Shown: piece by piece, positions 537 to 20,649 of the stretch | Layout of the letters: every line of letters begins with the position of its first letter | Numbering within the stretch: the stretch's first letter is position 1 | IMG/VR virus record: IMGVR_UViG_2909272501_000001 | Source: a virus | Taxonomy: Duplodnaviria > Heunggongvirae > Uroviricota > Caudoviricetes | DNA length: 24,470 nucleotides | Reading direction: 5' to 3' (one strand) | Program-made: the position numbers and the translations under genes | Notes under the pieces: generated by a model | What the model was told of the DNA's origin: nothing | Databases searched by the model: none | What the model saw: only the letters and a program-made list of their open reading frames with translations

Positions 537-556
537 ATGGTGCGATAATAGGAATG
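537..556. repeat. Left copy of an imperfect direct repeat ATGGTGC(C)GATAATAGGA; candidate att core bounding the P4-like element
   Basis: ATGGTGCGATAATAGGAATG here versus ATGGTGCCGATAATAGGAGT at 11862-11881; identical over 17 positions with one 1-nt indel. The two copies bracket the whole P4-like gene set. Confidence 0.5.
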
Positions 557-612
557 AATATTAAAAGTTAAGACATTGATTTATAATAGATTATTATATT
601 CAAAAAATATAA

Positions 613-633
613 CTATACACATATCTATACACA
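613..633. repeat. Two direct copies of the 9-mer CTATACACA (613-621, 625-633); candidate integrase arm-type binding sites
   Basis: Same 9-mer recurs at the other end of the element (11741-11749, and inverted at 11698-11706). Position just inside the putative att core. Confidence 0.3.
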
Positions 634-675
634 CTGCGCGCATCGCTTGTTTTTTACACAATTAAAAGTAAGAAA

Positions 676-972
676 AAAGTTTTTTTTCGAAAGAACTGTT
701 CACACTGTTCACCTTTCTTTTGTCTCCTTTTATTTCAGAGTGATAGGTGGTGAATAATGGGTGAAGGGTGAACATTCGATTCTTCACCTCCGGCATTCTG
801 CCGGTGTGACTCATACCGGTGATTAATCCCCCATACTGAAATCACACAGGGAGAAAAAAAAGTTTTTTTTGATTTGATTGTTCACACTGTTCACCTTTCG
901 TTTTTCTCTTTTAATTTCAGTGTGATAACGGGTGAATACACGGTGAAGGGTGAACAGTGGATTGTTCACCTT
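676..972. repeat. crr-like cis replication region: two ~115-bp direct repeats (period ~182 bp), each with TGTTCACA/TGTTCACC and GGTGAACA-type octamers
   Basis: Octamers at 698-705, 707-714, 767-774, 781-788 and again at 880-887, 889-896, 949-956, 963-970. Lies immediately downstream of the alpha gene, as crr does in P4. TGTTCACC is the alpha-protein binding octamer of P4 (established knowledge). Confidence 0.7.
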
Positions 973-986
973 CGGGGAATTCAGGG

Positions 987-1013
987 ATAAAAAAAGACCG
1001 GCAGATGCCGGTC
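987..1013 (-). terminator. Rho-independent terminator candidate downstream of alpha
   Basis: Perfect 8-bp inverted repeat GACCGGCA/TGCCGGTC (996-1013) followed on the minus strand by a T-run (plus-strand A-run 989-995), 17 nt after the alpha stop. Confidence 0.55.
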
Positions 1014-1029
1014 AGATGAGTCATGATGG

Positions 1030-3363
1030 TCAGGTTGTCGCAGGGTCGTCACATTTTGGCAGCCAGTCGCCGTAGCTTTCCTCTTTCAGCGTCAGGTTGG
1101 TCTGTATCCCCTGTTTGGTATGGCGCTTCTCGTAATTCAGTCCGTATTCCTTCAGCATCACCGGCAGCCCCAGCCCGAACATTTTCAGACTGAGTACATT
1201 CCGGTAGCCGTTTGCCTCCATGTAGGCCAGATAGGCGTGATAGAGGTATTTACGGTAATTGCGCGGGATGATACTGGCGTTCCCCATATACATGCCGCTG
1301 GTCTGCGGCAGGGTTTCCAGATAGCCGATAAAATCAAACGTCGGGTCGGCATCCCGTTTGATGTTCAGCGCCTCGTCTGAGTTCTGCTGGGACTGAAGCA
1401 GTGACCGGGCGAGCATCGGGTCGCTGAACTTCTGCATCAGGTGACGCACGATGACCGCCAGCTCGCGGGTGATTTTGTCCTTAAGCTGCGGGTCGCGCTC
1501 CTGCGGGGCTATCTGTTCCGGGAAGTGAATAATCACCCGCCGGCGTGACACGCCGCCGCTGCGGTCGGTGAAGCGCATCGGGTTATTGTTCACGGCCAGA
1601 ATTACCGCCGGGATATGCGTGGAGTATGCATCCCGGTATTTCGGGTCAACGGACACCGCATCGCCGCCGGTGATGGCCTTGAGTCCGGCACCGTCGCCGC
1701 TCCATTTTTCCTGGTCCGGCAGGCGTATCAGTGAGAAGCCAGTTAACGCGGCACGTTCACGCGGGGATTCCAGCGTCTCGATGGTGGCCGACGTGGCGTT
1801 ATCCTCCCCGGCCAGCAGGGTGGCTATTTCGGCCATGATACTTTTGCCGCTGCCGCCGGGACCGGTCACCTCCAGAAAGAGCTGCCAGTCGTAGCGGTTT
1901 GCCAGCACCATAAACAGTGCGGCCAGAATCACGTCGCGTTTTTCCGCACGACCACCGGCGGCACGGTCAAGCCAGCGCCAGAACGCGGGGGCGTGGGTTT
2001 CCAGCGTTTCCCCTTCCACCGGCGGGGTGAAATCCACATCGCACAGGGTGCGCATCCAGTGTGACGGACTGTGCGGGTGGAACGTGCCGCTCTGCGTGTC
2101 GAGCACGCCGTTACGAAAGCCAATCAGGCGGCGGGAGGGGGCTTCCTGCTGCGGAATAATCAGCTTCAGGGTGTCCACCACGGAGGCCACCTTCCCGGAG
2201 GAGAACGGCGCGCGCAGACGCTGAAACAGCCCGGCCACATCCCGGGCAAAGTCCTGTGGCGGCAGCACCTTCCAGACACCATTTTCATAGCGGGACAGAA
2301 GCTGGCCGTTGGCATCGACCGCGAGCGCCTCGCCGTAATGCTCATAGATACGCATGGCCTTTTCGCTGGTACTCATGGCGGAAAACTCCGCTTCGCTCAT
2401 GGTGTCGAACGGGCTTTCAGCCGGTGGCCGGATGGCATCATAAATGGCCTTACGGGTGGCTTCCCCGCCGTACTGCGTGAAGGCATCATTCCAGTCACCG
2501 AAGACCGGCGGCAGGGCAACAACACCTTCACACGCATCTGCGGCTGCGGCGGCTTTTGTCTGGCCGTCACCGCTGAGGTCACGGTCAGCAGCAAGGACAA
2601 TCTGACAGGCCGGATGCTTCTGCCGGGCAAGGCTGGCCAGAGAAAGGAGGTTCACGGAAGAAAGCGCCACCATCACCGTTTCACCGGTCAGGTGATGCAC
2701 GGTAAGTGCGGTCGCGTATCCCTCCGCTATCCACAGACGTTTTCCGGCCTGATTCTGTCCTTCAAGGGTGTGACAGGTGCCCCTGACCTGTCCGCCTTTC
2801 AGGGTGCGCTTACGGCCGTCAGCGCTGATTAACTGAAGGTTAACCAGTTCGCCGCTGTCGTCATACAGTGGCACCACAAGGTCACCGGCGCACCAGCTCA
2901 CGCCACCGGCTCTGTGTGTGCCGGTCAGCATCCGGCATTCCCGGCCGGGAAAACCCTTGCGGGTCAGGTAGGCGTTACCGGTTCCGGGACGGGTTTTCGC
3001 CATCAGGGTTTGTGCCAGTGCGGCGGCGTTCTTCCGGGCAGCGTCTGTTTCAGCACCGGCGGCGGCCGTCACTGCCGGGTCAGCCGGGGGCAGACAGCCG
3101 GTCACGGCAGCCACCTTTGCGGCCGCGTCGGACGGGGAAACACCAAACACCTTTTCAACTAGTTTCAGGCCGTCACCGGCACCACACTGATTGCAGTACC
3201 AGGTGCCGCGCCCCTCCCTGTCATCAAAACGGAAGCGGTCACTCCCGCCACAGACCGGACAGGGCTGATGACGGTTTTTCAGCACCTGAATCCCCAGCGC
3301 CGGGAGAATACGCGGCCAGTGGCCGAGCGCATGGCTGACGGTGGCGGTTACGTTCATTTTCAT
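1030..3363 (-). CDS. alpha: P4 alpha-type primase-helicase (replication protein)
   Basis: 777-aa ORF, the length I recall for P4 alpha. N-terminal zinc-binding primase motif CPVCGGSDRFRFDD...WYCNQCG, Walker A GPGGSGKS in the C-terminal half. RBS AAGGAGA before the ATG. Flanked by TGTTCACC iterons at both crr-like and ori-like positions. Confidence 0.9.
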   Translation of the reverse strand: MKMNVTATVSHALGHWPRILPALGIQVLKNRHQPCPVCGGSDRFRFDDREGRGTWYCNQCGAGDGLKLVEKVFGVSPSDAAAKVAAVTGCLPPADPAVTAAAGAETDAARKNAAALAQTLMAKTRPGTGNAYLTRKGFPGRECRMLTGTHRAGGVSWCAGDLVVPLYDDSGELVNLQLISADGRKRTLKGGQVRGTCHTLEGQNQAGKRLWIAEGYATALTVHHLTGETVMVALSSVNLLSLASLARQKHPACQIVLAADRDLSGDGQTKAAAAADACEGVVALPPVFGDWNDAFTQYGGEATRKAIYDAIRPPAESPFDTMSEAEFSAMSTSEKAMRIYEHYGEALAVDANGQLLSRYENGVWKVLPPQDFARDVAGLFQRLRAPFSSGKVASVVDTLKLIIPQQEAPSRRLIGFRNGVLDTQSGTFHPHSPSHWMRTLCDVDFTPPVEGETLETHAPAFWRWLDRAAGGRAEKRDVILAALFMVLANRYDWQLFLEVTGPGGSGKSIMAEIATLLAGEDNATSATIETLESPRERAALTGFSLIRLPDQEKWSGDGAGLKAITGGDAVSVDPKYRDAYSTHIPAVILAVNNNPMRFTDRSGGVSRRRVIIHFPEQIAPQERDPQLKDKITRELAVIVRHLMQKFSDPMLARSLLQSQQNSDEALNIKRDADPTFDFIGYLETLPQTSGMYMGNASIIPRNYRKYLYHAYLAYMEANGYRNVLSLKMFGLGLPVMLKEYGLNYEKRHTKQGIQTNLTLKEESYGDWLPKCDDPATT

Positions 3364-3377
3364 GGTGTTGTTCTCCT

Positions 3378-3698
3378 TCAGTGCAGTACCGGCGCTTTTA
3401 TGTGACGGGCACAGAGTTCATCCATCACAACCAGCCCGAGAAAGGACAGCGACGGCGCGGCCTTCAGGGGGCCGGATTCCATTAAATCTTCCAGCAGGGC
3501 ACAGGCTATCTGACGCCCTTTTTCCTCACCGTGCTGGCGCAGATAAAAGCCCTCCAGCTCAGCGGCGATGGCCGCCTCCAGTGACTCAAGGGTGAGATGC
3601 GGGTAGCGGTGCTGACGTTCGCACACGGTCAGCCAGGCACAGGCGACAGCGCGACGGTAAAGGGCAGCGCGTAAGACGGGCGGTAAGGGTGTTTTCAT
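3378..3698 (-). CDS. Hypothetical protein, 106 aa, immediately upstream of alpha (position and length match what I recall as P4 orf106)
   Basis: ORF with RBS GGGAGGA upstream; stop 15 bp before the alpha start; GC-rich backbone codon usage. Confidence 0.5.
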
Positions 3699-3833
3699 TT
3701 GCTTTCCTCCCTGTGACAGATGACTGCATTCCGTGCCGGTTGCATTAACTGATAAGGCATATCTGCGTCTCCTGAAGACGTGCGTATCCCTGCGCGAATA
3801 CGCACATTTAATTTTTCGGGTGTCGTTTTTTAA

Positions 3834-4289
3834 TTACAGATAATTGCGGTAACTGTTATCCGGGGTGGTTTCCGGGTCAGGCTCCGTGCGGGGAATTTCC
3901 CGCCATTCCCGCGCTACCGGTGCTGCCCGGCTGACCGGAACAGTGTCCTGCGGGTAAATATCCAGATATTTCTCCCGCCATTTCTGTAATTCCGGGTCTC
4001 CGGCCATTTCTTTCAGTACCGCATGCCGGTTTACGGGGCTGCGTTTAAACAGGTCAGGACGGTCACAGGTAAATTCCCGCAGAAAACGCCCCAGCGGGAT
4101 GTCTGTGGTGCGTCCGTCAGCGAGGATACGCACAAGGATACTGAATTTACGGCGGTACGGGTTCCAGACAATGTCCGGGCAGCGGTACGGCATTTCCCAC
4201 GGAATACCGTCTTCCAGAATGCCGACCACGGCCACATCGGGAAAACCGGCAGAACGGTAAATCTCACCGGGCTGGGGAAAATCAAACAT
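3834..4289 (-). CDS. Hypothetical protein, 151 aa if started at the internal ATG at 4289 (track ORF extends to 4331)
   Basis: ATG at 4289-4287 overlaps the stop of the upstream 95-aa gene (ATGTTTGA), indicating translational coupling. Length matches what I recall as P4 orf151. Confidence 0.45.
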   Translation of the reverse strand: MFDFPQPGEIYRSAGFPDVAVVGILEDGIPWEMPYRCPDIVWNPYRRKFSILVRILADGRTTDIPLGRFLREFTCDRPDLFKRSPVNRHAVLKEMAGDPELQKWREKYLDIYPQDTVPVSRAAPVAREWREIPRTEPDPETTPDNSYRNYL

Positions 4290-4569
4290 GCGTCCTGTCT
4301 CCCCGGTCTTTCTGCTGGGCGAGAAAATCACGGCACAGGCCTTTGGCTTTCAGCTCATTCAGCACAAAATCAATATCCTCATTCAGGTAGCTGAAAATAT
4401 GCGGAATGTAGAGCTGATGCAGGCCGGAGAGTTCACGGTGAATCAAATCACCCCCAACAAACTGGGATACGGCGCTGGCGCGGTTGAGCTTATGGTAAGC
4501 CTCAATGCTGAGGTGTTCACGGGCGTCATGACGCGCTGAGACGGTCTGAGGGGCTTTTTTATTACGCAC
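4282..4569 (-). CDS. Hypothetical small protein, 95 aa, GTG start; possibly the epsilon-equivalent of the P4 left operon
   Basis: ORF in operon context. GTG start overlaps the stop of the upstream ORF (GTGCGTAA). The epsilon assignment rests only on length and order, not on recognised sequence. Confidence 0.45.
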
Positions 4570-5161
4570 GGGACACCCCCATCACCGGCAGACGGGCAGC
4601 AAGGGAGAGCACATAGTCACGGACAAGGGAACGGCGGGCACTGCGTTCATCACCGGCGACGGTGCGAAGCATGCAGATACGGGGATGACGGTCTGCGCGA
4701 CGGACAGCCGCAAACACAAAGACAAATTCAGGGTGTGAAGGGGTAAGGGTCGTAGCCATAAGGCAACCTCCGATAACAGCATAAATGACGCTATCGCCGG
4801 AGTTTCCACGCTCGATGGCGATAGCCCAGACGGGGGTGGAAATACCGGCGTTATCGGAAACCGGCCAGCCCGGAGGCTGCCCCGCCTGAGCTACCATTGA
4901 CTCTGCGGTATAATGAGCGGACGCGGGCAGAATGCACGGAGTGCCATTTGCTCGACTGACCACACACCACACCATAATCTGGCGCTCTGTGGCGTTGATT
5001 GCGACACAAAAAAAGACGCATGGCGCGTCATATGTCGCCGATAACATACTCGGGTTTCCACGCCCGGCTGCCGATTTTGCGGCAGCGGAAAAACTATATC
5101 CGCAAATGCCGGAAAAAGGCAAGCCAGAAAAAGGGAGTTTTTGCAGAGCGGGCATCATCAT
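4562..5161 (-). CDS. Uncertain ORF (199 aa from the internal Met; 214 aa on the track) covering the position where P4 carries its kil/eta/cI immunity region
   Basis: Open frame whose stop overlaps the next gene's start, but the translation is low-complexity and several other frames are also open in this GC-rich stretch. May be a misread of small genes and/or an RNA locus. Confidence 0.2.
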
Positions 5162-5424
5162 GCGTCGTACCCCCGTTTGCGTCCGGCAATGCGTCCGGCC
5201 ATCCATGCGGTGACTTCAGAGTGCAGCCAGGCCACATTTTTACCGCCAAGACTCACCTGCGGCGGAAATTCCCCCTTACGGATGAGTTCGTAGATGGTCG
5301 AGCGTGACAGGCCGCACAGGTGCATCACTTCCGGAAGACGCAAAAAACGCTCCTGTGTGATGTCCGGCAGCGGCATCAGTGGCGTCACAGGGGCAGGAGA
5401 CGGGGAAGAAAAAACAGCTTGCAT
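5158..5424 (-). CDS. AlpA/Vis-like small DNA-binding regulator (88 aa)
   Basis: Motif ...[29 protein letters not shown]... is typical of the AlpA/excisionase-like HTH family. RBS GAGG 8 nt upstream of the ATG at 5424. Same position and length as what I recall as P4 orf88 (vis). Confidence 0.65.
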
Positions 5425-5702
5425 CGGGCTACCTCGTTAATGTCCATACAGCACCGGATAAGTCCGTCCGGCTTCGGGTAGCGCTTTATTTTGTGAATAT
5501 TTTTGGCAGACGCAACAGGGGGGATTTGTTCCGGCAGCCTTACAATGGCTGTGTGTTTTTTGCACATCAGCGCCAGATAGCTTTAAAACGCTCTGGAAGG
5601 AGCTGGAAAAAATTATAGTGAAATACAAATTGTTTTTTCTTATTTATTTCAGTTAATTAATAAAAATAAAAAGTAATAAACAGCACAAAAAGTCCATGAA
5701 CG

Positions 5703-5806
5703 GGTGAACAGTGGTGAACAGACGGTGAACAGTCATTACTGCGATTGTTCACCCTTTAACTTACTGTATTACTTATCTTTTTTCTTATGGTGAACAGAGG
5801 TGAACA
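5703..5806. repeat. ori-like iteron cluster: six copies of GGTGAACA/TGTTCACC
   Basis: Octamers at 5703-5710, 5713-5720, 5724-5731, 5746-5753 (inverted), 5789-5796, 5799-5806, inside an AT-rich intergenic region ~4.8 kb from the crr-like repeats. P4 ori1 lies about 4.5 kb from crr and carries the same octamer (established knowledge). Confidence 0.65.
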
Positions 5807-5885
5807 GTAAAATATAAAAAAACAAACAGTAAGCCGGTTTTTCCTGCGACCTTTTCCTGGCTTGCCGGTCTGAGGATGAGTCTCC

Positions 5886-5903
5886 TGTGTCAGGGCTGGC
5901 ACA
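5886..5903 (+). promoter_or_regulatory. TGT-N12-ACA dyad; candidate Ogr/Delta-type activator site of the late promoter upstream of sid
   Basis: TGT (5886-5888), 12 nt, ACA (5901-5903), located ~75-90 bp upstream of the sid ATG. P2/P4 late promoters carry this dyad upstream of the -35 region (established knowledge). Confidence 0.4.
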
Positions 5904-5975
5904 TCTGCAATGCGTCGTGTTGTTGTCCGGTGTACGTCACAATTTTCTCAACCTGAAGTGACGAGGAGCCGGAAA

Positions 5976-6710
5976 ATGTCTGACAACACCATCCCTGAAT
6001 ATCTGCAACCCGCACTGGCACAACTGGAAAAGGCCAGAGCCGCCCACCTTGAGAACGCCCGCCTGATGGATGAGACCGTCACGGCCATTGAACGGGCAGA
6101 GCAGGAAAAAAATGCGCTGACGCAGGCCGACGGAAACGACGCTGACGACTGGCGCACGGCCTTTCGTGCAGCCGGTGGTGTCCTGAGCGACGAGCTGAAA
6201 CAGCGCCACATTGAGCGCGTGGCACGCCGGGAGCTGGTACAGGAATATGACAATCTGGCCGTGGTGCTGAATTTTGAACGCGAACGCCTGAAAGGGGCGT
6301 GTGACAGCACGGCCACCGCCTACCGGAAGGCACATCATCACCTTCTGAGTCTGTATGCAGAGCATGAGCTGGAACACGCCCTGAATGAAACCTGTGAGGC
6401 GCTTGTCCGGGCAATGCATCTGAGCATTCTGGTACAGGAAAATCCGCTCGCCAACACCACCGGGCATCAGGGCTACGTCGCACCCGATAAAGCTGTCATG
6501 CAGCAGGTGAAATCATCGCTGGAACAGAAAATAAAACAGATGCAAATCAGCCTCACCGGCGAGCCGGTTCTCCGGCTGACCGGACTGTCAGCGGCAACAC
6601 TTCCGCACATGGATTATGAGGTGGCAGGCACACCGGCACAGCGCAAGGTGTGGCAGGACAAAATAGACCAGCAGGGAGCAGAGCTTAAGGCCAGAGGACT
6701 GCTGTCATGA
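5976..6710 (+). CDS. sid: Sid, capsid size determination (external scaffold) protein
   Basis: 244 aa from the ATG at 5976 preceded by RBS GAGGAG (track ORF starts earlier at 5910). Length matches recalled P4 Sid. Followed by delta and psu in P4 order. Stop overlaps the delta start (ATGA). Confidence 0.85.
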   Translation: MSDNTIPEYLQPALAQLEKARAAHLENARLMDETVTAIERAEQEKNALTQADGNDADDWRTAFRAAGGVLSDELKQRHIERVARRELVQEYDNLAVVLNFERERLKGACDSTATAYRKAHHHLLSLYAEHELEHALNETCEALVRAMHLSILVQENPLANTTGHQGYVAPDKAVMQQVKSSLEQKIKQMQISLTGEPVLRLTGLSAATLPHMDYEVAGTPAQRKVWQDKIDQQGAELKARGLLS

Positions 6711-7207
6711 TTTACTGCCCGTCGTGTGGACATGTTGCTCACACCCGTCGCGCACATTTCATGGACGATGGCACCAAGATAATGATTGCACAGTGCCGGA
6801 ATATTTATTGCTCTGCGACATTTGAAGCGAGTGAAAGCTTTTTCTCTGACTGTAAAGATTCAGGAATGGAATACATTTCAGGCAAACAGAGATACCGCGA
6901 TTCACTGACGTCAGCCTCCGGCAGTATGAAACGCCCGAAAAGAATGCTTGTTACCGGATATTGTTGTCGGAGATGTAAAGGCCTTGCACTGTCAAGAACA
7001 TCGCGGCGTCTGTCTCAGGAAGTCACCGAGCGTTTTTATGTGTGCACGGATCCGGGCTGTGGTCTGGTGTTTAAAACGCTTCAGACCATCAACCGCTTCA
7101 TTGTCCGCCCGGTCACGCCGGACGAACTGGCAGAAAGCCTGCATGAAAAACAGGAACTGCCGCCAGTACGCTTAAAAACACAATCATATTCGCTGCGTCT
7201 GGAATGA
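6707..7207 (+). CDS. delta: Delta, Ogr-family zinc-finger late transcription activator (tandem Ogr-like domains)
   Basis: 166 aa. Two Cys4 Ogr-type motifs: CPSCGH...CRNIYCSATF and CCRRCKG...CTDPGCGLVF. Confidence 0.85.
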   Translation: MIYCPSCGHVAHTRRAHFMDDGTKIMIAQCRNIYCSATFEASESFFSDCKDSGMEYISGKQRYRDSLTSASGSMKRPKRMLVTGYCCRRCKGLALSRTSRRLSQEVTERFYVCTDPGCGLVFKTLQTINRFIVRPVTPDELAESLHEKQELPPVRLKTQSYSLRLE

Positions 7208-7280
7208 GGGCTGCCGGTTAACACCGGCCGTCGCCGCACACCGTATTTTTATTCTTCAGCATGATGAGAAAGAGATAACG

Positions 7281-7853
7281 ATGGAAAGCACAGCCTTACA
7301 GCAGGCCTTTGACACCTGTCAGAATAACAAAGCAGCATGGCTGCAACGCAAAAATGAGCTGGCAGCGGCCAAACAGGAATATCTGCGGCTTCTGTCAGGA
7401 GAAGGCAGAAACGTCAGCCGCCTGGACGAATTACGCAATATTATCGAAGTCAGAAAATGGCAGGTGAATCAGGCCGCCGGTCGTTATATTCGTTCGCATG
7501 AAGCCGTTCAGCACATCAGCATCCGCGACCGGCTGAATGATTTTATGCAGCAGCACGGCACAGCACTGGCGGCGGCACTGGCACCGGAGCTGATGGGCTA
7601 CAGTGAGCTGACGGCCATTGCCCGAAACTGTGCCATACAGCGTGCCACAGATGCCCTGCGTGAAGCCCTTCTGTCCTGGCTTGCGAAGGGGGAAAAAATT
7701 AATTATTCCGCACAGGATAGCGACATTTTAACGACCATCGGATTCAGGCCTGACGCGGCTTCGGTGGATGACAGCCGTGAAAAATTCACCCCTGCGCAGA
7801 ACATGATTTTTTCGCGTAAAAGTGCGCAACTGGCATCACGTCAGTCTGTGTAA
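7281..7853 (+). CDS. psu: Psu, polarity suppression / capsid decoration protein
   Basis: 190 aa, N-terminus MESTALQQAFDTCQNNKAAWLQRKNELAAA..., last gene of the sid-delta-psu operon. Confidence 0.85.
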   Translation: MESTALQQAFDTCQNNKAAWLQRKNELAAAKQEYLRLLSGEGRNVSRLDELRNIIEVRKWQVNQAAGRYIRSHEAVQHISIRDRLNDFMQQHGTALAAALAPELMGYSELTAIARNCAIQRATDALREALLSWLAKGEKINYSAQDSDILTTIGFRPDAASVDDSREKFTPAQNMIFSRKSAQLASRQSV

Positions 7854-7888
7854 AATTCCCCGAAAATCCGCCCGTTTTTACTGAAAAA

Positions 7889-7972
7889 AGCCATGCATCG
7901 ATAAGGTGCATGGCTTTGCATGCGTTTCCCTGCCTCATTTTCTGCAGACCGCGCCATTCCCGGCGCGGTCTG
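7889..7972 (+). other. Two strong hairpins after psu (7889-7915, 9-bp stem; 7945-7972, 11-bp perfect stem); possible terminator and/or packaging-region structure
   Basis: AGCCATGCA...TGCATGGCT and CAGACCGCGCC...GGCGCGGTCTG inverted repeats. Only the first is followed by a weak T-rich tract. Confidence 0.3.
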
Positions 7973-8017
7973 AGCGTGTCAGTGCAACTGCATTAAAACC
8001 GCCCCGCAAAGCGGGCG

Positions 8018-8036
8018 GGCGTGGCGGGGGGAGCAT
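8018..8036. other. cos-like site (candidate cohesive-end sequence)
   Basis: GGCGTGGCGGGGGGAGCAT matches 15 of 19 positions of the P2/P4 cohesive end as I recall it (GGCGAGGCGGGGAAAGCAC). It sits right after psu, where cos lies in P4, next to a GC-rich imperfect palindrome (7999-8019). Confidence 0.35.
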
Positions 8037-8118
8037 TGCGCGCTAAGGCTGATATTATAATTTTCTTTAATTCTATTTGGTATTTTGGCTTTATTCGTCA
8101 GAAGGAACGTTTAGAAAT

Positions 8119-8146
8119 AGACCACTACAATGGATTGTAGCGGTCT
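8119..8146 (-). terminator. Hairpin terminator candidate ending the int-RT-partner operon
   Basis: 12-bp inverted repeat AGACCACTACAA/TTGTAGCGGTCT (one G-U-compatible mismatch), 4-nt loop, ~10 nt downstream of the partner gene stop, followed by a modest T-rich tract on the minus strand. Confidence 0.4.
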
Positions 8147-8155
8147 GCATGATAT

Positions 8156-8896
8156 CTAGCGTTGCATTTCAGTTACTATGAAATTTTCTTCTGTAATAGA
8201 ATTCATTATCTCAAAGTACAATTCTTCAGGTTGAATAAACGCCAACTCTTTGCAAAGGTTGACAATGGTATCACTATAAGTGATACCCATCCGAGGATTG
8301 AAAAGCTCAAATCTCTTGATGTTTCTTTTGTTTTTTGAGTAAAAGTTTAAAGTGAAATATATTAGCACCTGTCTAAGATCGTAAACACTAAACTTCCTAT
8401 CTCCTGATTTTATTTCCACAAGAACATTTGAATAATAAATATCGCCATATGAATTATTTATTACTCCGCATCCATCGAATTGTGGAGACACTTCAATTTG
8501 GTTTTCCATTCCATATCGAGACAAAATGTTTCTTGCTATTTCCCTTATGGCATTGTACTCAACCATGCTTAAGGGTAGCTTGAAGTTAGAACCGTAAGCG
8601 AACCGCTGTAGATATTCTTTTGTTTTTTCAAAAACAACCTGAAAATCAGCATTATGGAAGATATCATGTGCTGAAAGAATATTTCTGTCTAACGAATCAT
8701 TCTGTATTGCCCTATATAAATTAAATGCGCACTCATTAACAAAGACGTTATTTGACCTATTAGCGCAGTCATCTAGAGGAGGATAAACGTCCTCGATGAG
8801 ACTGCCGTTAATGATGCGTATGAAATTATTAGCATTTGGAAGCAATTGATTCCAAAATGAAGTGAATTTTCGAGAAAACGTTAATTCAGATATCAT
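8156..8896 (-). CDS. Hypothetical 246-aa protein, partner of the reverse transcriptase; possible nuclease-like effector
   Basis: ATG overlaps the RT stop (ATGA at 8893-8896), with RBS GAGGA inside the RT 3' end. Very AT-rich. Segment GDIYYSNVLVEIKSG could be a D...ExK (PD-(D/E)xK-like) core, but this is unverified. Confidence 0.75.
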   Translation of the reverse strand: MISELTFSRKFTSFWNQLLPNANNFIRIINGSLIEDVYPPLDDCANRSNNVFVNECAFNLYRAIQNDSLDRNILSAHDIFHNADFQVVFEKTKEYLQRFAYGSNFKLPLSMVEYNAIREIARNILSRYGMENQIEVSPQFDGCGVINNSYGDIYYSNVLVEIKSGDRKFSVYDLRQVLIYFTLNFYSKNKRNIKRFELFNPRMGITYSDTIVNLCKELAFIQPEELYFEIMNSITEENFIVTEMQR

Positions 8897-10521
8897 AGCG
8901 CATCCTCAAGATTTCTTGCGGTATGCCTTTTACTTGCCCAATCCCTGTAAATCACCTCTACAAAGTTGAATGTTTTCTTATTATGCTCTCTCCAGTGCCG
9001 TCCTTCATCACCTAAGATGTAACTGGAAACGATCAATAGTCTTCTCTGCAACGGATGCATTGCAGAGAAATTTTTTTTGATATCAGAAAGCCATGCGTAA
9101 GAATTAATTTTTGCCATTGACTGTGTAACTATGTTCTTGACTAAGATGCTTTCTGGATTGTTATTGTATATTTCACTAAGGATTAGGGTGGATTTTTCTG
9201 AATTTTCTTTTGAGAGCATTCGGGCTACATAGGCTAAGTTGAGCTCAGTACTCAAAATATATGAATCTTGTTTAATTAGTGCAGTTATTTTATCAAGAAT
9301 AATATCTTTGGTTTCTGTGCTTAATTTTTGCCAGTTGGAGTTAGCTACTTGAATTATAGTTGTAAATATTGGATATAACTCATGCAAGTTATTAAACATT
9401 ACTTTGAAAGCACTACTTATTATTTCATCTGATGTTGCTGAGAATGCCTTTATCAAATGCTTGCTAAAAGATTGGTTAATTTTTGATTTTTGTAACTCAC
9501 TACTCAGCATAGCTAACAAGTCAAAATCTTTTAAAGATTCCTTTATCTCTTCATATTCCTCTATCGCATTTGCTGAGTAAGGATCGAATCTTATAGGAAG
9601 ACTCATAAATTTAGCCTTCATAGGAGATTCTTCATCTTCATCATTACCATGCAACTTAGCTTTAGTTACTGAAAGGAACTCTTCTTTAGTAACAATATTG
9701 GTTTTTTGTTTCTGTAAAGTTAGCCCTTCATTTTCCATCAGTTTTTTACTAAGCAAAGTTAAAATCTTATGAGCATCCTCTCTAGAGTTACAAAAAATAA
9801 CAAAGTCGTCGACATAACGCTTATAGTTGATTCTATTCATAGACAATAATTTATCAATAGAATCTAGAGCTAGTTCTGCTAATATTCTAGAGGCAGGACA
9901 TCCAACTGGTACTCCATATGATTTTGTTTCACTAAATGTCTGTAGTAATTTCTTGATTTTCCCAGAGTAATCTTTATTGGGGTCGACTCTATCTAACGCA
10001 TTTTCTAAACGGTGGTGATAAATACGCGGATAGAAATCTGCTATATCGCATGTAAGTACATACTTTATTTCATCGTTAGAACATTCAGAGATACTGTCTT
10101 CTTGATATTTTCTCCAAGAGATCTCTTTATCAAAAAGAGAACCATCAGCAAGGTTTGGTTTAAAGCGATATGAATAAACCTGCGTTTTAGTAGATCTATT
10201 CCTTTCAATATCATCAGCGATTTTTAAAACTAACCCAAGAAAAAAAGCATTCCAGAATGGATCAATTTGGGTCGCCCACCTGTAACCATAATAACCAATA
10301 CTTGAAAAGCTATTAATTATGTTTGGTGGAATCTCGATCCTTTTATTTTCAAAGTCATTAAATGTTTGCATTAATGCAGTTTTTACTTTCTCCTTATCAT
10401 CTTCAAATAACCGACTTTCAAATGGGTAAGGGAAAATATCTGTATCGCCGTGCTTTATAATATTTTCCAATGCAAGCTCAAAGCAATTTTCTAGTTTACT
10501 ACTATCAAACTCGTTACTCAT
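8893..10521 (-). CDS. Reverse transcriptase, 542 aa, with ~230-aa alpha-helical C-terminal extension; UG/Abi-like defence-associated RT candidate
   Basis: RT motifs in canonical order: LTCDIADFYPRIYHHRL (motif A-like), SYGVPVGCPASRILAELAL (motif B'-like), KRYVDDFVIF (YVDD catalytic motif C), NEGLTLQKQKTNIV (motif D/E-like). RBS AAGGAGA; start overlaps the int stop by 8 nt. No retron-type VTG motif seen. Confidence 0.85.
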   Translation of the reverse strand: MSNEFDSSKLENCFELALENIIKHGDTDIFPYPFESRLFEDDKEKVKTALMQTFNDFENKRIEIPPNIINSFSSIGYYGYRWATQIDPFWNAFFLGLVLKIADDIERNRSTKTQVYSYRFKPNLADGSLFDKEISWRKYQEDSISECSNDEIKYVLTCDIADFYPRIYHHRLENALDRVDPNKDYSGKIKKLLQTFSETKSYGVPVGCPASRILAELALDSIDKLLSMNRINYKRYVDDFVIFCNSREDAHKILTLLSKKLMENEGLTLQKQKTNIVTKEEFLSVTKAKLHGNDEDEESPMKAKFMSLPIRFDPYSANAIEEYEEIKESLKDFDLLAMLSSELQKSKINQSFSKHLIKAFSATSDEIISSAFKVMFNNLHELYPIFTTIIQVANSNWQKLSTETKDIILDKITALIKQDSYILSTELNLAYVARMLSKENSEKSTLILSEIYNNNPESILVKNIVTQSMAKINSYAWLSDIKKNFSAMHPLQRRLLIVSSYILGDEGRHWREHNKKTFNFVEVIYRDWASKRHTARNLEDAL

Positions 10522-11698
10522 TCACATTCTCCTTAATAAAAATATAATCTGAATACCACTGCATCATATCACGGCGTTTATCAATATATTGAGCATGATT
10601 ATACGTACCTCTAATATTATTCTTATCTATATGAGCAAGCTGTATTTCTATCCAAGCCGAATCATATCCTTTTTCGTGGAGGATAGTAGATAAGGAATGT
10701 CGAAATCCATGACCAGTAAGTTTTCCACCATAACCAATACGCTTGATAACTTGGTTAATACTCGCCTCACTCATAGGCTTGTTCGGATCGTTCCGCCCCG
10801 GAAAAACATAACTATACTTCCCTGTCATCATCTTGAGTTCATTTAGCAAATCTAACGCTTGAGTCGACAAAGGCACAAGGTGTGATCTGCGCATTTTCAT
10901 CCTTTCAGCAGGAATTTCCCAAATAGCGTTATCTAAATCAAATTCTGACCATAATGCCGCACGTAATTCGATGGTTCTAACACCTGTAATCATGAGCAAT
11001 TTCGTGGCAATCAGGACAAGCCGACTTCCGGTATATCCGTTTAAGGCGCGAAGAAAATCAGGTATCTCATTAGCCTTTAAGAACGGGAAATGATTTGATT
11101 GGTGTACATTGAGGGCGCTTGAAAGATCCGCAGCAGGGTTAAACTCAGCCCTTCCAGTAGCAATGGCATAGCGGAAAACTTCTGAGCATCGCTGCCGAAC
11201 TTTGCGCATTTTTTCTAATGCACCGCGCTTTTCGATTTTACGCAGCACATTAAGCAGTTCTAGCGGTTTAATCTCTCCCACTGGCCTTGTTCCCACATAA
11301 GGAAAAATGTCGTTCTTAAACGCTTCCATGATGTCTGATGCATATCCCGCCGACCATTTGGTAGACTTCTGTTGATGCCACTCTCTGGCTATCTTTTCGA
11401 AGGCGTTCTCTGACTCTGTTTGCAGAGCCAGCTTTTGCTCTTTTCGAACCTCACTAGGGTTCTTTCCTTCTGCCACAAGTTTTCGAGCTTCATCACGACG
11501 GGAACGAGCATCAGCAAGAGTGATCGTTGGGTAAACACCAAGCGAGATCATTTTGGGTTTACCGGCATAGCGATAACGAAATCGCCAGCTTTTACTTCCA
11601 TTTGGCTCTACAAGTAAAGACAACCCTTGCCCATCCCCAAGTGTATAGGCTTTAGCTTCAGGTTTAGCACGGCGAATCTGCATATCATTTAGGGGCAT
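10514..11698 (-). CDS. int: P4-type (DUF4102-family) tyrosine integrase
   Basis: 394 aa. N-terminal ...RRAKPEAKAYTLGDGQGLSLLVEPNGSKSWRFRYRYAGKPKMISLGVYP... is characteristic of P4/CP4-57-type integrases. Catalytic R...HxxR...H...Y residues (GVRTIEL, GHGFRHSLS, LAHIDKN..RGTYNHAQY). Confidence 0.88.
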   Translation of the reverse strand: MPLNDMQIRRAKPEAKAYTLGDGQGLSLLVEPNGSKSWRFRYRYAGKPKMISLGVYPTITLADARSRRDEARKLVAEGKNPSEVRKEQKLALQTESENAFEKIAREWHQQKSTKWSAGYASDIMEAFKNDIFPYVGTRPVGEIKPLELLNVLRKIEKRGALEKMRKVRQRCSEVFRYAIATGRAEFNPAADLSSALNVHQSNHFPFLKANEIPDFLRALNGYTGSRLVLIATKLLMITGVRTIELRAALWSEFDLDNAIWEIPAERMKMRRSHLVPLSTQALDLLNELKMMTGKYSYVFPGRNDPNKPMSEASINQVIKRIGYGGKLTGHGFRHSLSTILHEKGYDSAWIEIQLAHIDKNNIRGTYNHAQYIDKRRDMMQWYSDYIFIKENVNE

Positions 11699-11749
11699 GT
11701 GTATAGAATTCCAAAATCGAACAGGAACATATACATAATCCTATACACA
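11698..11749. repeat. Arm-type 9-mers near the int start: TGTGTATAG (11698-11706, inverted) and CTATACACA (11741-11749)
   Basis: Same 9-mer as at 613-633; the first copy overlaps the int start codon. Confidence 0.3.
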
Positions 11750-11861
11750 TTTAGTACTGGATTCTACTGGAAAGTTATGGACTAATACGAACAGTAAAAA
11801 CAAAAAATCTTTTATAAAACAGTGCGGTTATGGATAAATACGGATGTTTGAAGAAGTGGAG

Positions 11862-11881
11862 ATGGTGCCGATAATAGGAGT
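11862..11881. repeat. Right copy of the imperfect direct repeat; candidate att core shared by both elements
   Basis: ATGGTGCCGATAATAGGAGT, see 537-556. The first 9 nt (TGGTGCCGA) resemble the reverse complement of a tRNA 3' end, but no T-arm follows. Confidence 0.5.
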
Positions 11882-12023
11882 AAAACACTCGATTAATCTC
11901 GTGTTAATGCCATCACCTACGACCATTACTAATTGATTGAATCTGATAGAAAAATTATCATTTTCTATACCTTACAATCAATTTACACATTACAAACGCT
12001 CCGACACTTTAGCCGGAGATTTT

Positions 12024-13301
12024 ATGAGATACAAGCCTAACCAATACTTAATCTGTGATTCTTACGGTAACTACTATTTAAGGATCACGCTGCCTGTGTA
12101 TATGCAGCCCTTTTTTGAAGGAAAAAGGACGTTTGTCAGAAGTCTACACACAAGTAATCTTCGTGTGGCACGTCGAAAGCGTGATCAGATTGCAGATGAA
12201 TACCATTGCTTACGGGAGAGTGTTGCCCCTGTAAACAGCACAATAGAAAACACGCTGGAACTGTTACGCAGTAAGGCTAAATACGCCAAAACAGCTACCA
12301 GAATGCAAGATACAGCGTCTTCGTGTCCGTCATTGCTTAAAATTCTTGAAATCTACCTGACAATTAACAGCACGAAGAAGAAGCCAGCCACTTTAGCTAA
12401 GGCAAGAAAAGCGGTAGAGATGTTTCTCTCCTACCGTAAAAAGCCTGATATTGCATTGCAAGATGTAAGCCGCACCACTGTTACAGGCTGGATTGAACAC
12501 ATGCAAAAAACCCTTTCACAACAATCAATTGCAAATTATATCAGCCCAATGGTCCAGCTATGGGAGTTAGCTTCATCACGTTACCACGATGCGCCAGAAA
12601 GGGCGCTCTCCCCCTGGCGAGGGCATAGGCTTGATGTGGCACAAAGTAGAGAGAGCTACGAGGCATTTTCTAACAAAGAGCTATTGCAGGTGTTGCAAGT
12701 ATTTTCCGGTGATTCAGCAGAAAACAAAGAAATGACGGCTTTGTGTCTTATCGGTTTATATACAGGTATGCGGATCAATGAGATAGCAAGTATCACAATA
12801 GACGATGTGAAAGAGATCGAAGGTGTGCTGTGTTTTGAAATCACACAGGGAAAAACGAAAGCTGCGGCACGTCTTGTGCCTGTGCATAACCTTATCACTC
12901 CGTTGGTGTTGTCGCTGCGTGAAAAGCCTCACAATGGCTTTTTGTTCTATCACGCCAGCATTACAGAACGTGCTGACGGTAAACGCTCTACGTGGCATAC
13001 ACAACGATTTACAAGAGCTAAACGAAAGGCTTTAGGGGAAAAGGGAACAGAAAGGAAAGTGTTTCATTCTCTGAGACACGGAGTAGCACAGCTTCTTGAT
13101 CGAAATCAAATTCCAGAAGACAGGATCGCCCTTCTCCTGGGCCATACACGCGGCAATACAGAAACATTCCGCACATATAGCAAGAATGCAGCTTCTCCAG
13201 TAGAGCTTAAAAAATATATTGAGCTTTTACGCTACCCTGAAATAGAGAAAGGCTTATCAATCAATAAAAAATCAAATTTAAGGCGTAAAACAACGCCATA
13301 G
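12024..13301 (+). CDS. Second tyrosine recombinase/integrase (425 aa from the ATG at 12024; track ORF begins at a TTG at 11937)
   Basis: Catalytic signature GMRINEI (R), FHSLRHGVAQ (HxxR), LLGHT (H), TYSKN (Y). RBS GGAG 5 nt before the ATG. AT-rich. Confidence 0.75.
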   Translation: MRYKPNQYLICDSYGNYYLRITLPVYMQPFFEGKRTFVRSLHTSNLRVARRKRDQIADEYHCLRESVAPVNSTIENTLELLRSKAKYAKTATRMQDTASSCPSLLKILEIYLTINSTKKKPATLAKARKAVEMFLSYRKKPDIALQDVSRTTVTGWIEHMQKTLSQQSIANYISPMVQLWELASSRYHDAPERALSPWRGHRLDVAQSRESYEAFSNKELLQVLQVFSGDSAENKEMTALCLIGLYTGMRINEIASITIDDVKEIEGVLCFEITQGKTKAAARLVPVHNLITPLVLSLREKPHNGFLFYHASITERADGKRSTWHTQRFTRAKRKALGEKGTERKVFHSLRHGVAQLLDRNQIPEDRIALLLGHTRGNTETFRTYSKNAASPVELKKYIELLRYPEIEKGLSINKKSNLRRKTTP

Positions 13302-13381
13302 ACGTAATAAAGAGGCTTCAATATAGATTGATGCCTCTTTTATGATTATCTCGTTACAGAGCGTTTCATAGGCGTTTAAGG

Positions 13382-14059
13382 CTATTGTTTAAATACTGGC
13401 GTTACAACGTCTTGCCCTGGGCTTTTTTGATTTTTCTGTTCTGTTGTATTTACCTGCATTTTAACCTGTCCCCCTACAGATTTATTTGGTGCTGTTTTTA
13501 CAGCAATAGCATTAGTGGTGGCCTTAGAGACAAGACGAATTTGCTCAAAATCAAGAGTAAACAATAAGCTTTCGCTTGCTTCTTCTTCGTAAGACATGCC
13601 AACTAACACAACGTTGTCATAATTTTTTAACTCAGTGACAAGTAGGAAAGGTTGGCGACTGTCCATCAACTGATTTAGGTATTCAAGCATAAGCATACGT
13701 CGATTGCCGTTAATTCCCGCATTCTTAATCATATCGGGATTGAGTTTCAATACGGTTTCAGAGATACGCCCCTGTAATGTGAACTTGTTATTCCGTATTT
13801 GAACATGATCACTAACTTCTGATCCTGATTCGACGGCATAGCTTGTAACGTCTGCATTTCGGCTAACTTTCGTCGATTCCACGTTATCAAATGATAATGC
13901 CCGGTAGTCATTGTAAGCAGCATTTGCACCACTGCCGAGGTTAGAGGTAATAATCGCAAAGCCGTTACCCCCTTTAGTTGTTCTACCGTTGCTATCGTTG
14001 CTTGTGCTGTTGATTTTCGCCTCAGTCGGGCGACCAATGGTTAACGGACCCATTGCCAT
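13382..14059 (-). CDS. Hypothetical protein, 225 aa (possible virion-associated protein)
   Basis: ORF with RBS AAGGA; last gene of a co-oriented leftward block that includes capsid-like candidates. No recognisable motif. Confidence 0.45.
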   Translation of the reverse strand: MAMGPLTIGRPTEAKINSTSNDSNGRTTKGGNGFAIITSNLGSGANAAYNDYRALSFDNVESTKVSRNADVTSYAVESGSEVSDHVQIRNNKFTLQGRISETVLKLNPDMIKNAGINGNRRMLMLEYLNQLMDSRQPFLLVTELKNYDNVVLVGMSYEEEASESLLFTLDFEQIRLVSKATTNAIAVKTAPNKSVGGQVKMQVNTTEQKNQKSPGQDVVTPVFKQ

Positions 14060-14106
14060 AATTTGTAATCCTTATTTAAGGGGGCTAAACAGCCCCACAG
14101 TGATGA

Positions 14107-15948
14107 TTAATAGGTTGACCCGCCTGACATAACACCCAGCGTTAATAGCTTGCTAAACTCAGCGGAGGATGCCTTTGATTTGAAGTCGATAAATTCGCTC
14201 AATCGTCCGGTGTCTGATTCGATAGTTAGCGGCACTTCTGCATTTACTTGTAATTCTGGATTGAAGTTAATAACAGGTGCAAAGGTGTAAGAAGGAGTCT
14301 TGATAGCTTGTTGTGCTGCACTCTGTTTCAGATTTGCAATGTTTTGTCCTTCGAGAGTGTATTGATTTACAGCCTGCGCCCCGCCTACCGTTTCTTCTGG
14401 CGTAAACCAGCCTTTAATAGTGTTAAACAGGGAATTGCTGTTATCTGGCTTAGTTGTTCCGGTGCCAGCGCCTTTATATTGATCAGGAACGAGATTAGAA
14501 AGATTCTGTTTCATCCCTTCGTTAGACAGTGGCGGTGCATCACCTAAATTCTTCTGAATAGCTTCCGTCTTCTCGTCGTTTTTCATCAGCCAGTTGATTG
14601 CTTTCATTACGGCGTTAACCAATCCGCCGATAGCCTCGCCTAATTTGGTAAACATTGGCAGCATTGCAACCATACTCTTTTTGAACTCTTCAATCACAGC
14701 AGGATCGAGAGATTTCATAAAGCCATCAACAAAGGCGATCCCTTGTGAGTCAGAAAGCCCACTAAGTGCATTATTCAGTTCACGGAATTTAATAACGCTT
14801 TCCTGTTGTGCCTGTGTTACCCAGCGCCCTGATTCTCGTTGTTCTCGTGCTGATTGTTCCACTTCTTTAGCGGAGCGTGTCCAGTATTTAGAGGTGAGCA
14901 TCAAATCATCAGCCAGATCTTCCAGACGACTACCGATTTGTGCATCTGAATAGCCTTTAGCTACCATTCCCTGAACTGCTTTACTAACCAGACCAGCCGG
15001 ATTATCAGCAAAGTCTTTTAGATCCTTTTTAGTTAGGAATCCTTCATTCATTAAAGTATTGATGCCGCTATCGCCGCCCTTCCATTCTCCTTTACCAGTT
15101 TTCTTATCAACTACATATTCAGCTTCATCATAAGATTTGGTTGCACGTTCACGCACATCTTTCATCTGATCCAGATACTTACGTTTACCTTGTTCGCCCA
15201 TCATTGAATCAACGCCGTTTTTATACGCCCATTGTTCAACATCGTTCATCTGGTTAACGTCTACACCGCCCAGCTTCGCACGGCTATACAATTCACCCAG
15301 CGTTTCAGCATTCGCAAAGCTGTTAGTAACAAATTCAGAGGCTTTGCTCATAGCCATATACGTAGCGCCAGCGCCTAAGCCACCCAGCATAACAGCCGCA
15401 GCACCGCCGCCAATACTCCCGCTACCCTTAACAGGTGCATAGGCTTTAGCGTGAGCGTTACGATTGCCATTAATCTTACGTTGTTGCTGTTGTAGGCGTT
15501 TCATTTGGCTATTCATACGTGCCAGACTAATAGCGCCTCTTTCATATTGGAGGGCAATTTCTCTAGCCTGTGCAATAGCTTTATATTGTTCCGCTACAGA
15601 AAGACGGTGCATTGCACTAATGCTTGATCCAACGTCTAAAAGCTTTAATTCTGCCTTCTCTTTGCGTGCTGCCAGGGCTTTTTGTTCTCTTGCAACTACA
15701 CGTTGAGCGGCTAATTGTGCTTTAGCATTGGCTTTATCTGCCTGTGCTTGCTTTTTAGCAATATCGTCTACGTCTTTTTTTGCTTTAGCGGTTGATTGTT
15801 TATGTGTCTTAACACGCAATTCTATATCTTTCACCGCCGCCATTTGTTTACGAAGTTTTTCTACTTCTGCTTTTGCTTTCTCTAATGATGGTCGATCAAC
15901 CTGGAAGGTGACAACGTTTGATAAGCGGCTGACGTTAAGTTCTAACAT
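14107..15948 (-). CDS. Large coiled-coil / Gly-rich protein, 613 aa; tape-measure-like or other minor virion structural protein candidate
   Basis: N-terminal ~170 aa is Lys/Ala/Gln-rich with heptad-like periodicity, followed by a Gly-rich hydrophobic segment (GSIGGGAAAVMLGGLGAGATYMAM) and then a globular region. RBS AGGGA. Confidence 0.55.
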   Translation of the reverse strand: MLELNVSRLSNVVTFQVDRPSLEKAKAEVEKLRKQMAAVKDIELRVKTHKQSTAKAKKDVDDIAKKQAQADKANAKAQLAAQRVVAREQKALAARKEKAELKLLDVGSSISAMHRLSVAEQYKAIAQAREIALQYERGAISLARMNSQMKRLQQQQRKINGNRNAHAKAYAPVKGSGSIGGGAAAVMLGGLGAGATYMAMSKASEFVTNSFANAETLGELYSRAKLGGVDVNQMNDVEQWAYKNGVDSMMGEQGKRKYLDQMKDVRERATKSYDEAEYVVDKKTGKGEWKGGDSGINTLMNEGFLTKKDLKDFADNPAGLVSKAVQGMVAKGYSDAQIGSRLEDLADDLMLTSKYWTRSAKEVEQSAREQRESGRWVTQAQQESVIKFRELNNALSGLSDSQGIAFVDGFMKSLDPAVIEEFKKSMVAMLPMFTKLGEAIGGLVNAVMKAINWLMKNDEKTEAIQKNLGDAPPLSNEGMKQNLSNLVPDQYKGAGTGTTKPDNSNSLFNTIKGWFTPEETVGGAQAVNQYTLEGQNIANLKQSAAQQAIKTPSYTFAPVINFNPELQVNAEVPLTIESDTGRLSEFIDFKSKASSAEFSKLLTLGVMSGGSTY

Positions 15949-15982
15949 GCTAATTGTTTCCCTGTATTATGATTGTTGTTTA

Positions 15983-16180
15983 TTATTGTTTTTTAGAGCA
16001 ATAGTATTGAATTGCTTCGAAAGTGCTGCATCCAGTCTGAAAGACACGCTGACGCACATTATTTGCATCAATTTCTAAAAGGCGGCAAAGCGCCGATGTG
16101 TTTATAACTGATTCCTCGCTAATAGCTGCCAGTTCTTTTACAGATTTAAGAATTAATGCCTGTGAATTTTCTGCGTTCAT
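15983..16180 (-). CDS. Small hypothetical protein, 65 aa
   Basis: ORF between the 343-aa and 613-aa genes; no motif recognised. Confidence 0.3.
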   Translation of the reverse strand: MNAENSQALILKSVKELAAISEESVINTSALCRLLEIDANNVRQRVFQTGCSTFEAIQYYCSKKQ

Positions 16181-16335
16181 TGGTTTTCTCTCACATATAT
16201 ATTTTTATTTGGGTTTGTAGACAGTAGAAAAAAAATAAGGGCAAGAGACAGCGCATATTTTGCTTATATGATTATCCCTTACCCTTATTGCCCCGATTAT
16301 TTCCAGACGATGGGGAATCGTCTATTAACGCTTTA

Positions 16336-17367
16336 TTACGCAGCAGATCCGAAGATGATAGCTTGCGGAATGTTGTTTACTGGCAGATAAGATGTCTCAG
16401 TAACCACAGATGGGAATTGGAATTCATCCTTGATTAGATATTGGTGATGTAACACGGCATCTTGACCTAACTCAGCATGACGCACACCAACGCCGCTATG
16501 AAGCTGATAGCACTGTGCCGCTTTATCCATTACTGGAACAATTGCGAAACCGTTCTCTCCGATGTGAGCAACAATCTCAGGAAACATTGACACATCAATA
16601 ACAGTGATCCCACCAATCTGGAAAGAGTCATAGGCTGGGTTAGAATCAACCATACGGGTAAACAGGGCCGTAGCACTCGCATCACCTGCATATTTCACCA
16701 TGTCACTGATCAGCGGGTTAGATGACAAACCATCAGCAGCAGCGCCAGCAGCAAAGATAATTACACCAGTTCGCTTTGCAGCAAGACCAGACCCCAGCTT
16801 TTCACTCTGTAAGCGCACCGCTTTACGAATAGCAAGGAACGGGTTAACAGTAGTCGATGCAAAGTCGATAGCGGGTACCGTGGTTTTAGCCTGACCGTCG
16901 AGGAAGTCGAGATCACCTTGTCCGGCATATTCAGATTCAACTTTCAGGCCCAGCAGCGCGGTAATCAGATCCACTTCAACACGGTTTGCGTGTGAACGGT
17001 AATGTGCCTCAGAGAAATCATTAACCGCTACCAGCATAGCATCAGAACGGTTTGGATATTGGCGGCTGTATTGTTCCAGGTCACGAGAAGTAACAGCGTT
17101 AATACTGCCGACGTGTTTCATCTGGAAAAGTTTGTTTGACCATTCCTGACGTTTAGAGGCGTTCCAGTCGCTTTGAGCGTAAGGCGAGGTTTCCCCAGCT
17201 ACCTGCACAAACTGATCAATCAGGTCGGTAAGAAGAATGCTGTTTTCTGTATGATATTGCACATCGAACAGATCGAGATTAGTAATCAGGGTATTAAGTG
17301 CATTCTCATAAGCAAATGGAGTTACTACCGCAGTATTAACGCCAAAATATGTTGATAAATCATTCAT
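16336..17367 (-). CDS. Hypothetical protein, 343 aa; major-capsid-like candidate (speculative)
   Basis: Size and position directly after a ~125-aa decoration-like gene resemble the lambda D/E arrangement. No direct sequence similarity to lambda gpE that I can confirm by eye. Confidence 0.5.
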   Translation of the reverse strand: MNDLSTYFGVNTAVVTPFAYENALNTLITNLDLFDVQYHTENSILLTDLIDQFVQVAGETSPYAQSDWNASKRQEWSNKLFQMKHVGSINAVTSRDLEQYSRQYPNRSDAMLVAVNDFSEAHYRSHANRVEVDLITALLGLKVESEYAGQGDLDFLDGQAKTTVPAIDFASTTVNPFLAIRKAVRLQSEKLGSGLAAKRTGVIIFAAGAAADGLSSNPLISDMVKYAGDASATALFTRMVDSNPAYDSFQIGGITVIDVSMFPEIVAHIGENGFAIVPVMDKAAQCYQLHSGVGVRHAELGQDAVLHHQYLIKDEFQFPSVVTETSYLPVNNIPQAIIFGSAA

Positions 17368-17381
17368 TATTATTTTCCTTG

Positions 17382-17765: not shown

Positions 17766-17769
17766 AAGA

Positions 17770-17967
17770 TTATTTTCCTTTCAGTTGTTTAATTTTAGAT
17801 TTAAGGGCATCAGCAAGACTAACCGCATCAGCCGATTTAAATAATTGAGCAGTGGTAGAACGAAGACTTTCGGGAGTAACTCCCAACAGTGCGGCAACCT
17901 TAATGAGGTTTTCATCACTAACAATCATCGTTTCCCCGTCTTTGCTGATAATCATTTCTTGTTTCAT
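17770..17967 (-). CDS. Small hypothetical protein (65 aa from the ATG with RBS AGGAAC; track ORF extends to 18009)
   Basis: ORF with plausible RBS; first gene of the leftward structural-like block. Confidence 0.3.
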   Translation of the reverse strand: MKQEMIISKDGETMIVSDENLIKVAALLGVTPESLRSTTAQLFKSADAVSLADALKSKIKQLKGK

Positions 17968-19496: not shown

Positions 19497-19511
19497 ACGC
19501 CCGTCTTTCTA

Positions 19512-20596: not shown

Positions 20597-20649
20597 TAAA
20601 AATCTCCTTGATGTAATCACGCTCTACGGCGCTACTATGGTGATAAAAA

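Follow-up and report, generated by a model that had tools for sequence, protein, structure and literature searches.

We have identified the replication sites of an integrated relative of satellite phage P4. The two clusters of TGTTCACC octamers at 673-975 and 5703-5806 of the 24,470-nt stretch of DNA analyzed here (the window) are almost certainly crr and ori1 of the P4 satellite-phage replicon, carried by an 11.3-kb integrated P4 variant. The identity of the sites themselves as P4 crr and ori1 is practically beyond doubt, and it is highly probable, judging from sequence, that the replicon is functional and replication-competent. P4 crr and ori1 have been on record since the 1980s. The finding is correct but ordinary: the system is a common one that has been described before, and no new biology is added. 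Its use lies in annotating the element, a chromosomal satellite with a complete, apparently functional P4 replicon, and in judging whether helper infection could lead to amplification of the DRT8 cargo.

Positions 674-8017 of the window form one block that is colinear with P4 (X51522) 4291-11624 at 97.4% identity, which identifies the region as the replicon of P4 itself, beyond "P4-like". When positions 600-1020 were compared with phage records using BLAST, phage P4 was the sole match (95.1% identity; P4 4291-4633). Of the 16 type 1 repeats annotated in P4, crr holds 10 and ori six, and the window matches every one of them base for base. The initial annotation had taken the crr-like and ori-like iterons to be intact and arranged in the bipartite crr/ori1 organization of P4, and had suggested checking this by aligning the sites with crr and ori1 of P4. 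That alignment bears out both statements: every type 1 iteron is kept, the iteron distances in ori1 are unchanged, and the first cluster falls on the annotated crr and the second on ori1. Coordinates of the features are collected in Table 1.

Table 1. Features of the integrated P4 variant, in window coordinates
Feature	Position	Strand	Description and evidence
att core, crr end	537-552	-	fragment of the thrW 3' end lacking 1 nt; minus strand TCCTATTATCG-CACCA
crr (cis replication region)	673-975		two 121-nt direct repeats and a 61-nt spacer; 95% identical to P4 4291-4590, annotated crr
crr repeat 1 iterons, whole span	697-788
crr repeat 1 iteron	697	+	TGTTCACA; base-identical to P4 4314
crr repeat 1 iteron	706	+	TGTTCACC; base-identical to P4 4323
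crr repeat 1 iteron	749	-	TATTCACC; base-identical to P4 4366
crr repeat 1 iteron	767	-	TGTTCACC; base-identical to P4 4384
crr repeat 1 iteron	781	+	TCTTCACC; base-identical to P4 4398
crr repeat 2 iterons, whole span	879-970
crr repeat 2 iteron	879	+	TGTTCACA; base-identical to P4 4494
crr repeat 2 iteron	888	+	TGTTCACC; base-identical to P4 4503
crr repeat 2 iteron	931	-	TATTCACC; base-identical to P4 4546
crr repeat 2 iteron	949	-	TGTTCACC; base-identical to P4 4564
crr repeat 2 iteron	963	+	TGTTCACC; base-identical to P4 4578
t-alpha, Rho-independent alpha terminator with T-run	996-1013	-	terminator scan; identical to P4 annotated 4604-4628
alpha	1030-3363	-	initiator: Zn-ribbon/Toprim primase, SF3 helicase, C-terminal winged-helix origin-binding domain
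cnr (ORF106), P4 replicon copy-number regulator	3378-3698	-	106 aa; 100% identical to P4 ORF106
Immunity region (CI RNA and targets)	4814-5099	-	gates transcription into alpha; Rfam matches
C4	4814-4901	-	Rfam
isrK	5009-5086	-	Rfam
c4-a1b1	5047-5099	-	Rfam
Position of the three P4 "ori type 2 repeats"	5569-5612 (about)		unrelated sequence here; alignment with P4
ori1 core	5703-5806		six exact TGTTCACC (5703-, 5713-, 5724-, 5746+, 5789-, 5799-); iterons base-identical to P4 9310-9413
DRT8 partner, PD-(D/E)XK-type	8156-8896	-	246 aa; RTasPDDEXK, E = 5.5e-69
DRT8 reverse transcriptase	8893-10521	-	542 aa; PADLOC Drt8, E = 5e-166; Pfam RVT_1
Satellite integrase	10514-11698	-	394 aa; Pfam Arm-DNA-bind_3, Phage_int_M, Phage_integrase
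att core, int end	11863-11881	-	19/19 nt identical to the 3' end of tRNA-Thr thrW

The crr of the window lies directly 3' of alpha, past the alpha terminator, in agreement with the earlier placement of the first cluster next to this gene. Its direct repeats (673-793 and 855-975) are 81% identical, start 182 nt apart and, at 121 nt each, are close enough to the ~115 bp first estimated. The eight octamers originally counted in this cluster were a small undercount, as there are ten by the criterion of the P4 record, five of them exact. Each repeat holds five of them, and all coincide exactly with sites labelled "ori type 1 repeat" in the GenBank entry of P4. The crr query falls on the 120-bp direct repeats and on the type 1 repeats of the P4 annotation, and the crr layout of the P4 oriI replicon, with two ~120-bp direct repeats 3' of alpha that hold five type 1 repeats each, is found here in full. 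Iteron spacings within each repeat (9, 43, 18 and 14) are those of P4. The distance between the two repeats exceeds that of P4 by 2 nt through an insertion in an A-run, which is the sole length change among the iteron spacings.

Exact copies of TGTTCACC number 11 in the window when both strands are counted, against 0.56 expected; five occur at 706-970, six at 5703-5806 and none in the rest of the window. Permitting one mismatch added five copies to the first cluster (697, 749, 781, 879 and 931), and the other one-mismatch matches were isolated singles across the window. The expectation was taken from 100 dinucleotide-preserving shuffles (mean 0.56, maximum 4), among which 0/100 reached at least 11 copies. 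An origin of the clusters by chance or as low-complexity sequence, or a role as binding sites for some other protein with no part in replication, is extremely unlikely; beyond the shortness of the motif nothing speaks for this. The shuffles rule out a chance origin, both clusters have base-for-base orthologues in P4 that carry a replication annotation, and the architecture is kept across genera beside alpha homologues.

The ori1 cluster also agrees with its first description as six octamers in AT-rich DNA about 4.8 kb from the other cluster. All six copies are exact, the region is 69% A+T compared with 45% for the P4-homologous block, and the distance from ori1 to crr is ~4.8 kb. The iteron spacings (10, 11, 22, 43 and 10) equal those of P4. 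Between iterons 4 and 5 is an A+T-rich spacer (5754-5788; 35 nt, 80% A+T) that differs from P4 by two substitutions and no indels. Insertions that alter the iteron phasing leave ori1 of P4 inactive. The ori1 of the window is thus made up of six near-helically spaced type 1 iterons and an A+T-rich stretch of 35 bp, and crr lies several kb away.

The type 2 repeats belonging to the P4 rep_origin are swapped for unrelated sequence at ~5569-5612. In P4 they are three tandem 10-bp units (CCACTTAAAG-like; P4 9176-9205) inside the annotated rep_origin feature. The patch is the most divergent of the whole P4 block (the 250-nt bin from 5500 shows 44 differences), and both of its flanks as well as the adjacent vis/ORF88 (a single V30L) stay P4-like. 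Deletion mapping by Tocchetti et al. in 1999 reportedly delimited a minimal ori1 of 123 bp that includes all six iterons and the A+T-rich stretch of 35 bp. We take the type 2 repeats to fall outside this minimal ori1, and on that assumption they do not define the P4 replicon. If they are regulatory, for example a site at which Vis or another protein modulates ori1 or PLL, the swap could mark a variant with altered coupling of late transcription and origin firing, which we consider unlikely. The second origin of P4, ori2 (the oriII replicon, inside alpha), is probably present as well because the alpha DNA is ~98-99% identical to that of P4.

The alpha protein (777 aa) is 98.6% identical to P4 alpha and has no internal stops. 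Its 11 substitutions are located in residues 90-158 and at residues 269, 425, 450, 775 and 777. Pfam domains of the primase zinc ribbon, Toprim, D5_N, SF3 helicase core and Pox_D5 C-terminal domain were detected, and none of the 11 substitutions falls in the EGYATA motif (primase Toprim region; residue 214) or in the Walker A motif GPGGSGKS (501-508). Residues 671-770 are 100% identical to PDB 1KA8, the crystallized P4 origin-binding domain, which is cited as P4 alpha's winged-helix domain for DNA binding in PMC2777425. Primase, SF3 helicase and iteron-binding winged-helix domain are therefore all intact in alpha by sequence. As in the P4 replicon, cnr is situated beside alpha. Each of the sequence requirements described for P4 ori1 and crr is present in the window, which makes replication competence the most plausible reading, and we infer that this copy would fire once alpha is expressed.

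The replication mechanism that we propose for this element is established P4 biology carried over by analogy. The C-terminal winged-helix domain of alpha would bind type 1 iterons (TGTTCACC) in both ori1 and crr, and the two alpha-bound sites would cooperate in cis. In P4, loops between ori and crr have been observed by electron microscopy, and both sites are needed in cis. The duplex would melt at the A+T-rich part of ori1, where the SF3 helicase and primase activities of alpha would start bidirectional theta replication without host DnaA, DnaB and DnaG, and binding of Cnr to alpha would restrain the copy number. Firing would need relief of CI-RNA immunity, and free amplification would additionally need excision. 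A caveat is that alpha is expected to be made only when immunity is lifted, with a static copy number in the quiescent integrated state. Since alpha lies behind CI-RNA immunity, the dosage of the cargo would rise only upon derepression, helper interaction or in the plasmid state; genome surveys have found no P4-like elements as plasmids (PMC8628076).

Immunity itself appears to have changed in specificity. The seqA/seqC targets of P4 read GTGAGAA...TTCACAGG, whereas those of the window (4790-5100, minus strand) read GTGGAAA...GTTATCGG; the CI RNA of P4 has CCTGTGAA...TTCTCAC and that of the window CCGATAAC...TTTCCAC. The changes are matched between CI RNA and targets, and pairing would thus be preserved while specificity is shifted. 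An altered CI-RNA specificity with pairing kept suggests that the element is probably heteroimmune to P4.

The satellite as a whole spans ~537-11881 (11.3 kb) at a thrW-type att site of the E. coli chromosome, and the chromosomal neighbors of the window are paoD and a LysR-family pseudogene (E. coli). Positions 1-700 and 8000-12000, each used as a query of its own, both have 100% matches in several E. coli genomes. From the crr-end att core the element runs through arm-type CTATACAC repeats, crr, alpha, cnr, ORF151 and epsilon, continues with the immunity region, vis/ORF88, ori1, sid, delta, psu and cos, and ends with the DRT type 8 pair, the integrase, arm-type repeats and the second att core. 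The att cores were recognized by comparison with K-12 thrW; they are 16-19-nt fragments of the thrW 3' end only, and ARAGORN found no tRNA at the integration site. Arm-type CTATACAC repeats flank both ends of the element (609-632 and 11697-11750). Between the att repeats lie int, psu, delta, sid, alpA/vis, epsilon and alpha in P4 order, as in a complete satellite, and the 11.3-kb element fits the ~12-kb limit of a P4-size capsid (PMC9122126). The satellite integrase is 39% identical to P4 Int (BLASTP). As cargo, the hotspot between cos and int holds a two-gene DRT type 8 defence system (8156-10521, minus strand). At the cos cohesive-end position (8018-8036) the window has GGCGTGGCGGGGGGAGCAT compared with GGCGAGGCGGGGAAAGCAC in P4 (4/19 differ), and this difference may mean that the helper is not P2 itself. 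The part of the element that departs from the textbook is modular only. It consists of a near-pure P4 replicon and hijacking backbone with four changed modules, namely the compensated CI-RNA specificity, the type 2 patch beside ori1 and the late promoter, the non-P4 integrase with its thrW att site, and the DRT8 cargo.

Islands seem to be arrayed in tandem at thrW, with the satellite as the most distal of them. A second integrated element within 11937-24470 begins 238 nt past the satellite int. It has a tyrosine integrase in divergent orientation (11937-13301), genes for a Dit-like/baseplate protein (13382-14059) and for a tape-measure-like protein (14107-15948), and at 20027-20620 an ORF that weakly matches a replication-initiation family; for many other ORFs no family was assigned, and DNA matches to known phages are almost absent. 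In strain ECCRA-119, an extra island of ~12 kb with another RT, absent from the window, lies between the two integrases.

We also weighed whether the cis sites could be intact within an element that is domesticated or defective as a whole, for example through a lack of excision or broken regulation upstream of alpha, the iterons having been inherited recently without remaining functional. The 1-nt deletion in the crr-end att core, which might lower excision efficiency, would suit such an element, as would the swapped type 2 repeat region beside the late promoter, and the combination of a non-P4 integrase and att site with the Vis/ORF88 excisionase-like regulator of P4 (V30L) might be a module mismatch. 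However, all nine of the P4 genes compared are full length and 88-100% identical, with no internal stops, the full-length integrase ORF retains its three Pfam domains, arm-type repeats lie at both ends of the element, and replication from ori1 in situ would need no excision. Furthermore, the differences in CI RNA and targets compensate each other, which points to selection for function. A defective element is very unlikely for these reasons, and the reading as a functional P4 replicon is preferred.

Set against known systems, this replicon is closest to the P4 oriI replicon (ori1, crr, alpha and cnr; X51522 / NC_001609). The two have the same 7.3-kb backbone (97.4% identical), the same 10 crr and six ori iterons in sequence, orientation and spacing within ori1 and each crr repeat, and the same alpha terminator, alpha origin-binding domain and Cnr. 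The window differs in the replaced type 2 repeats, the 2 nt added between the crr repeats, the two substitutions in the ori1 spacer and the 11 amino-acid substitutions of alpha, none of which lies in residues 671-770. Outside the replicon the differences are in immunity specificity, cos overhang, integrase and att site, and DRT8 is found where P4 has gop/beta/cII. Iteron plasmid origins (for example P1, F, R6K and Vibrio Chr2) likewise combine a dedicated initiator with short repeats at the origin and a second cis site. Unlike in these origins, crr is a positive cis requirement in P4, and the initiator is also helicase and primase. The P4-like satellites of Enterobacterales described by Moura de Sousa & Rocha 2021 (PMC8628076) and Rousset et al. 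2022 (PMC9122126) share the order int, hotspot, psu-delta-sid, alpA/vis, epsilon, cnr, alpha, and in them too the integrase can be exchanged and a hotspot for defence genes lies between psu/cos and int. Among them, the copy in the window ranks with the closest to the P4 type strain. Both of these studies are protein-based, and the non-coding crr/ori sites are not described there.

In order to compare the sites with those of other genomes, alpha homologues were scanned in one genome per species, giving 80 loci that are 57-99% identical. In loci with an alpha of at least ~79% identity and enough flanking sequence, exact TGTTCACC typically clusters within ~300 nt downstream of alpha, with a second cluster typically ~1.6-2.5 kb upstream of it. 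In most loci with an alpha of at least 79%, the k-mer ranking first among those common to the regions downstream and upstream of alpha was a TGTTCAC-type 7-mer. We aligned 44 distinct regions downstream of alpha (the window and other enterobacterial species, alpha 74-86%), all taken at a fixed position and with no motif selection; 68% of sequences agreed with the window in iteron columns and 46% elsewhere (Mann-Whitney p = 1e-8). For ori the corresponding values from 31 regions were 93% and 56%, a contrast that is partly circular because these regions were located by iteron density. Among 5,426 complete E. coli genomes, 1,128 contain crr-like DNA and 1,066 contain ori-like DNA. Five loci (L013, L024, L025, L038 and L046; alpha 83-84%) have many GTGAACA 7-mers on both sides of alpha and few TTCACC cores, a pattern suggestive of variant iterons in which the final one or two bases of the octamer differ, and so of a possible shift in specificity.
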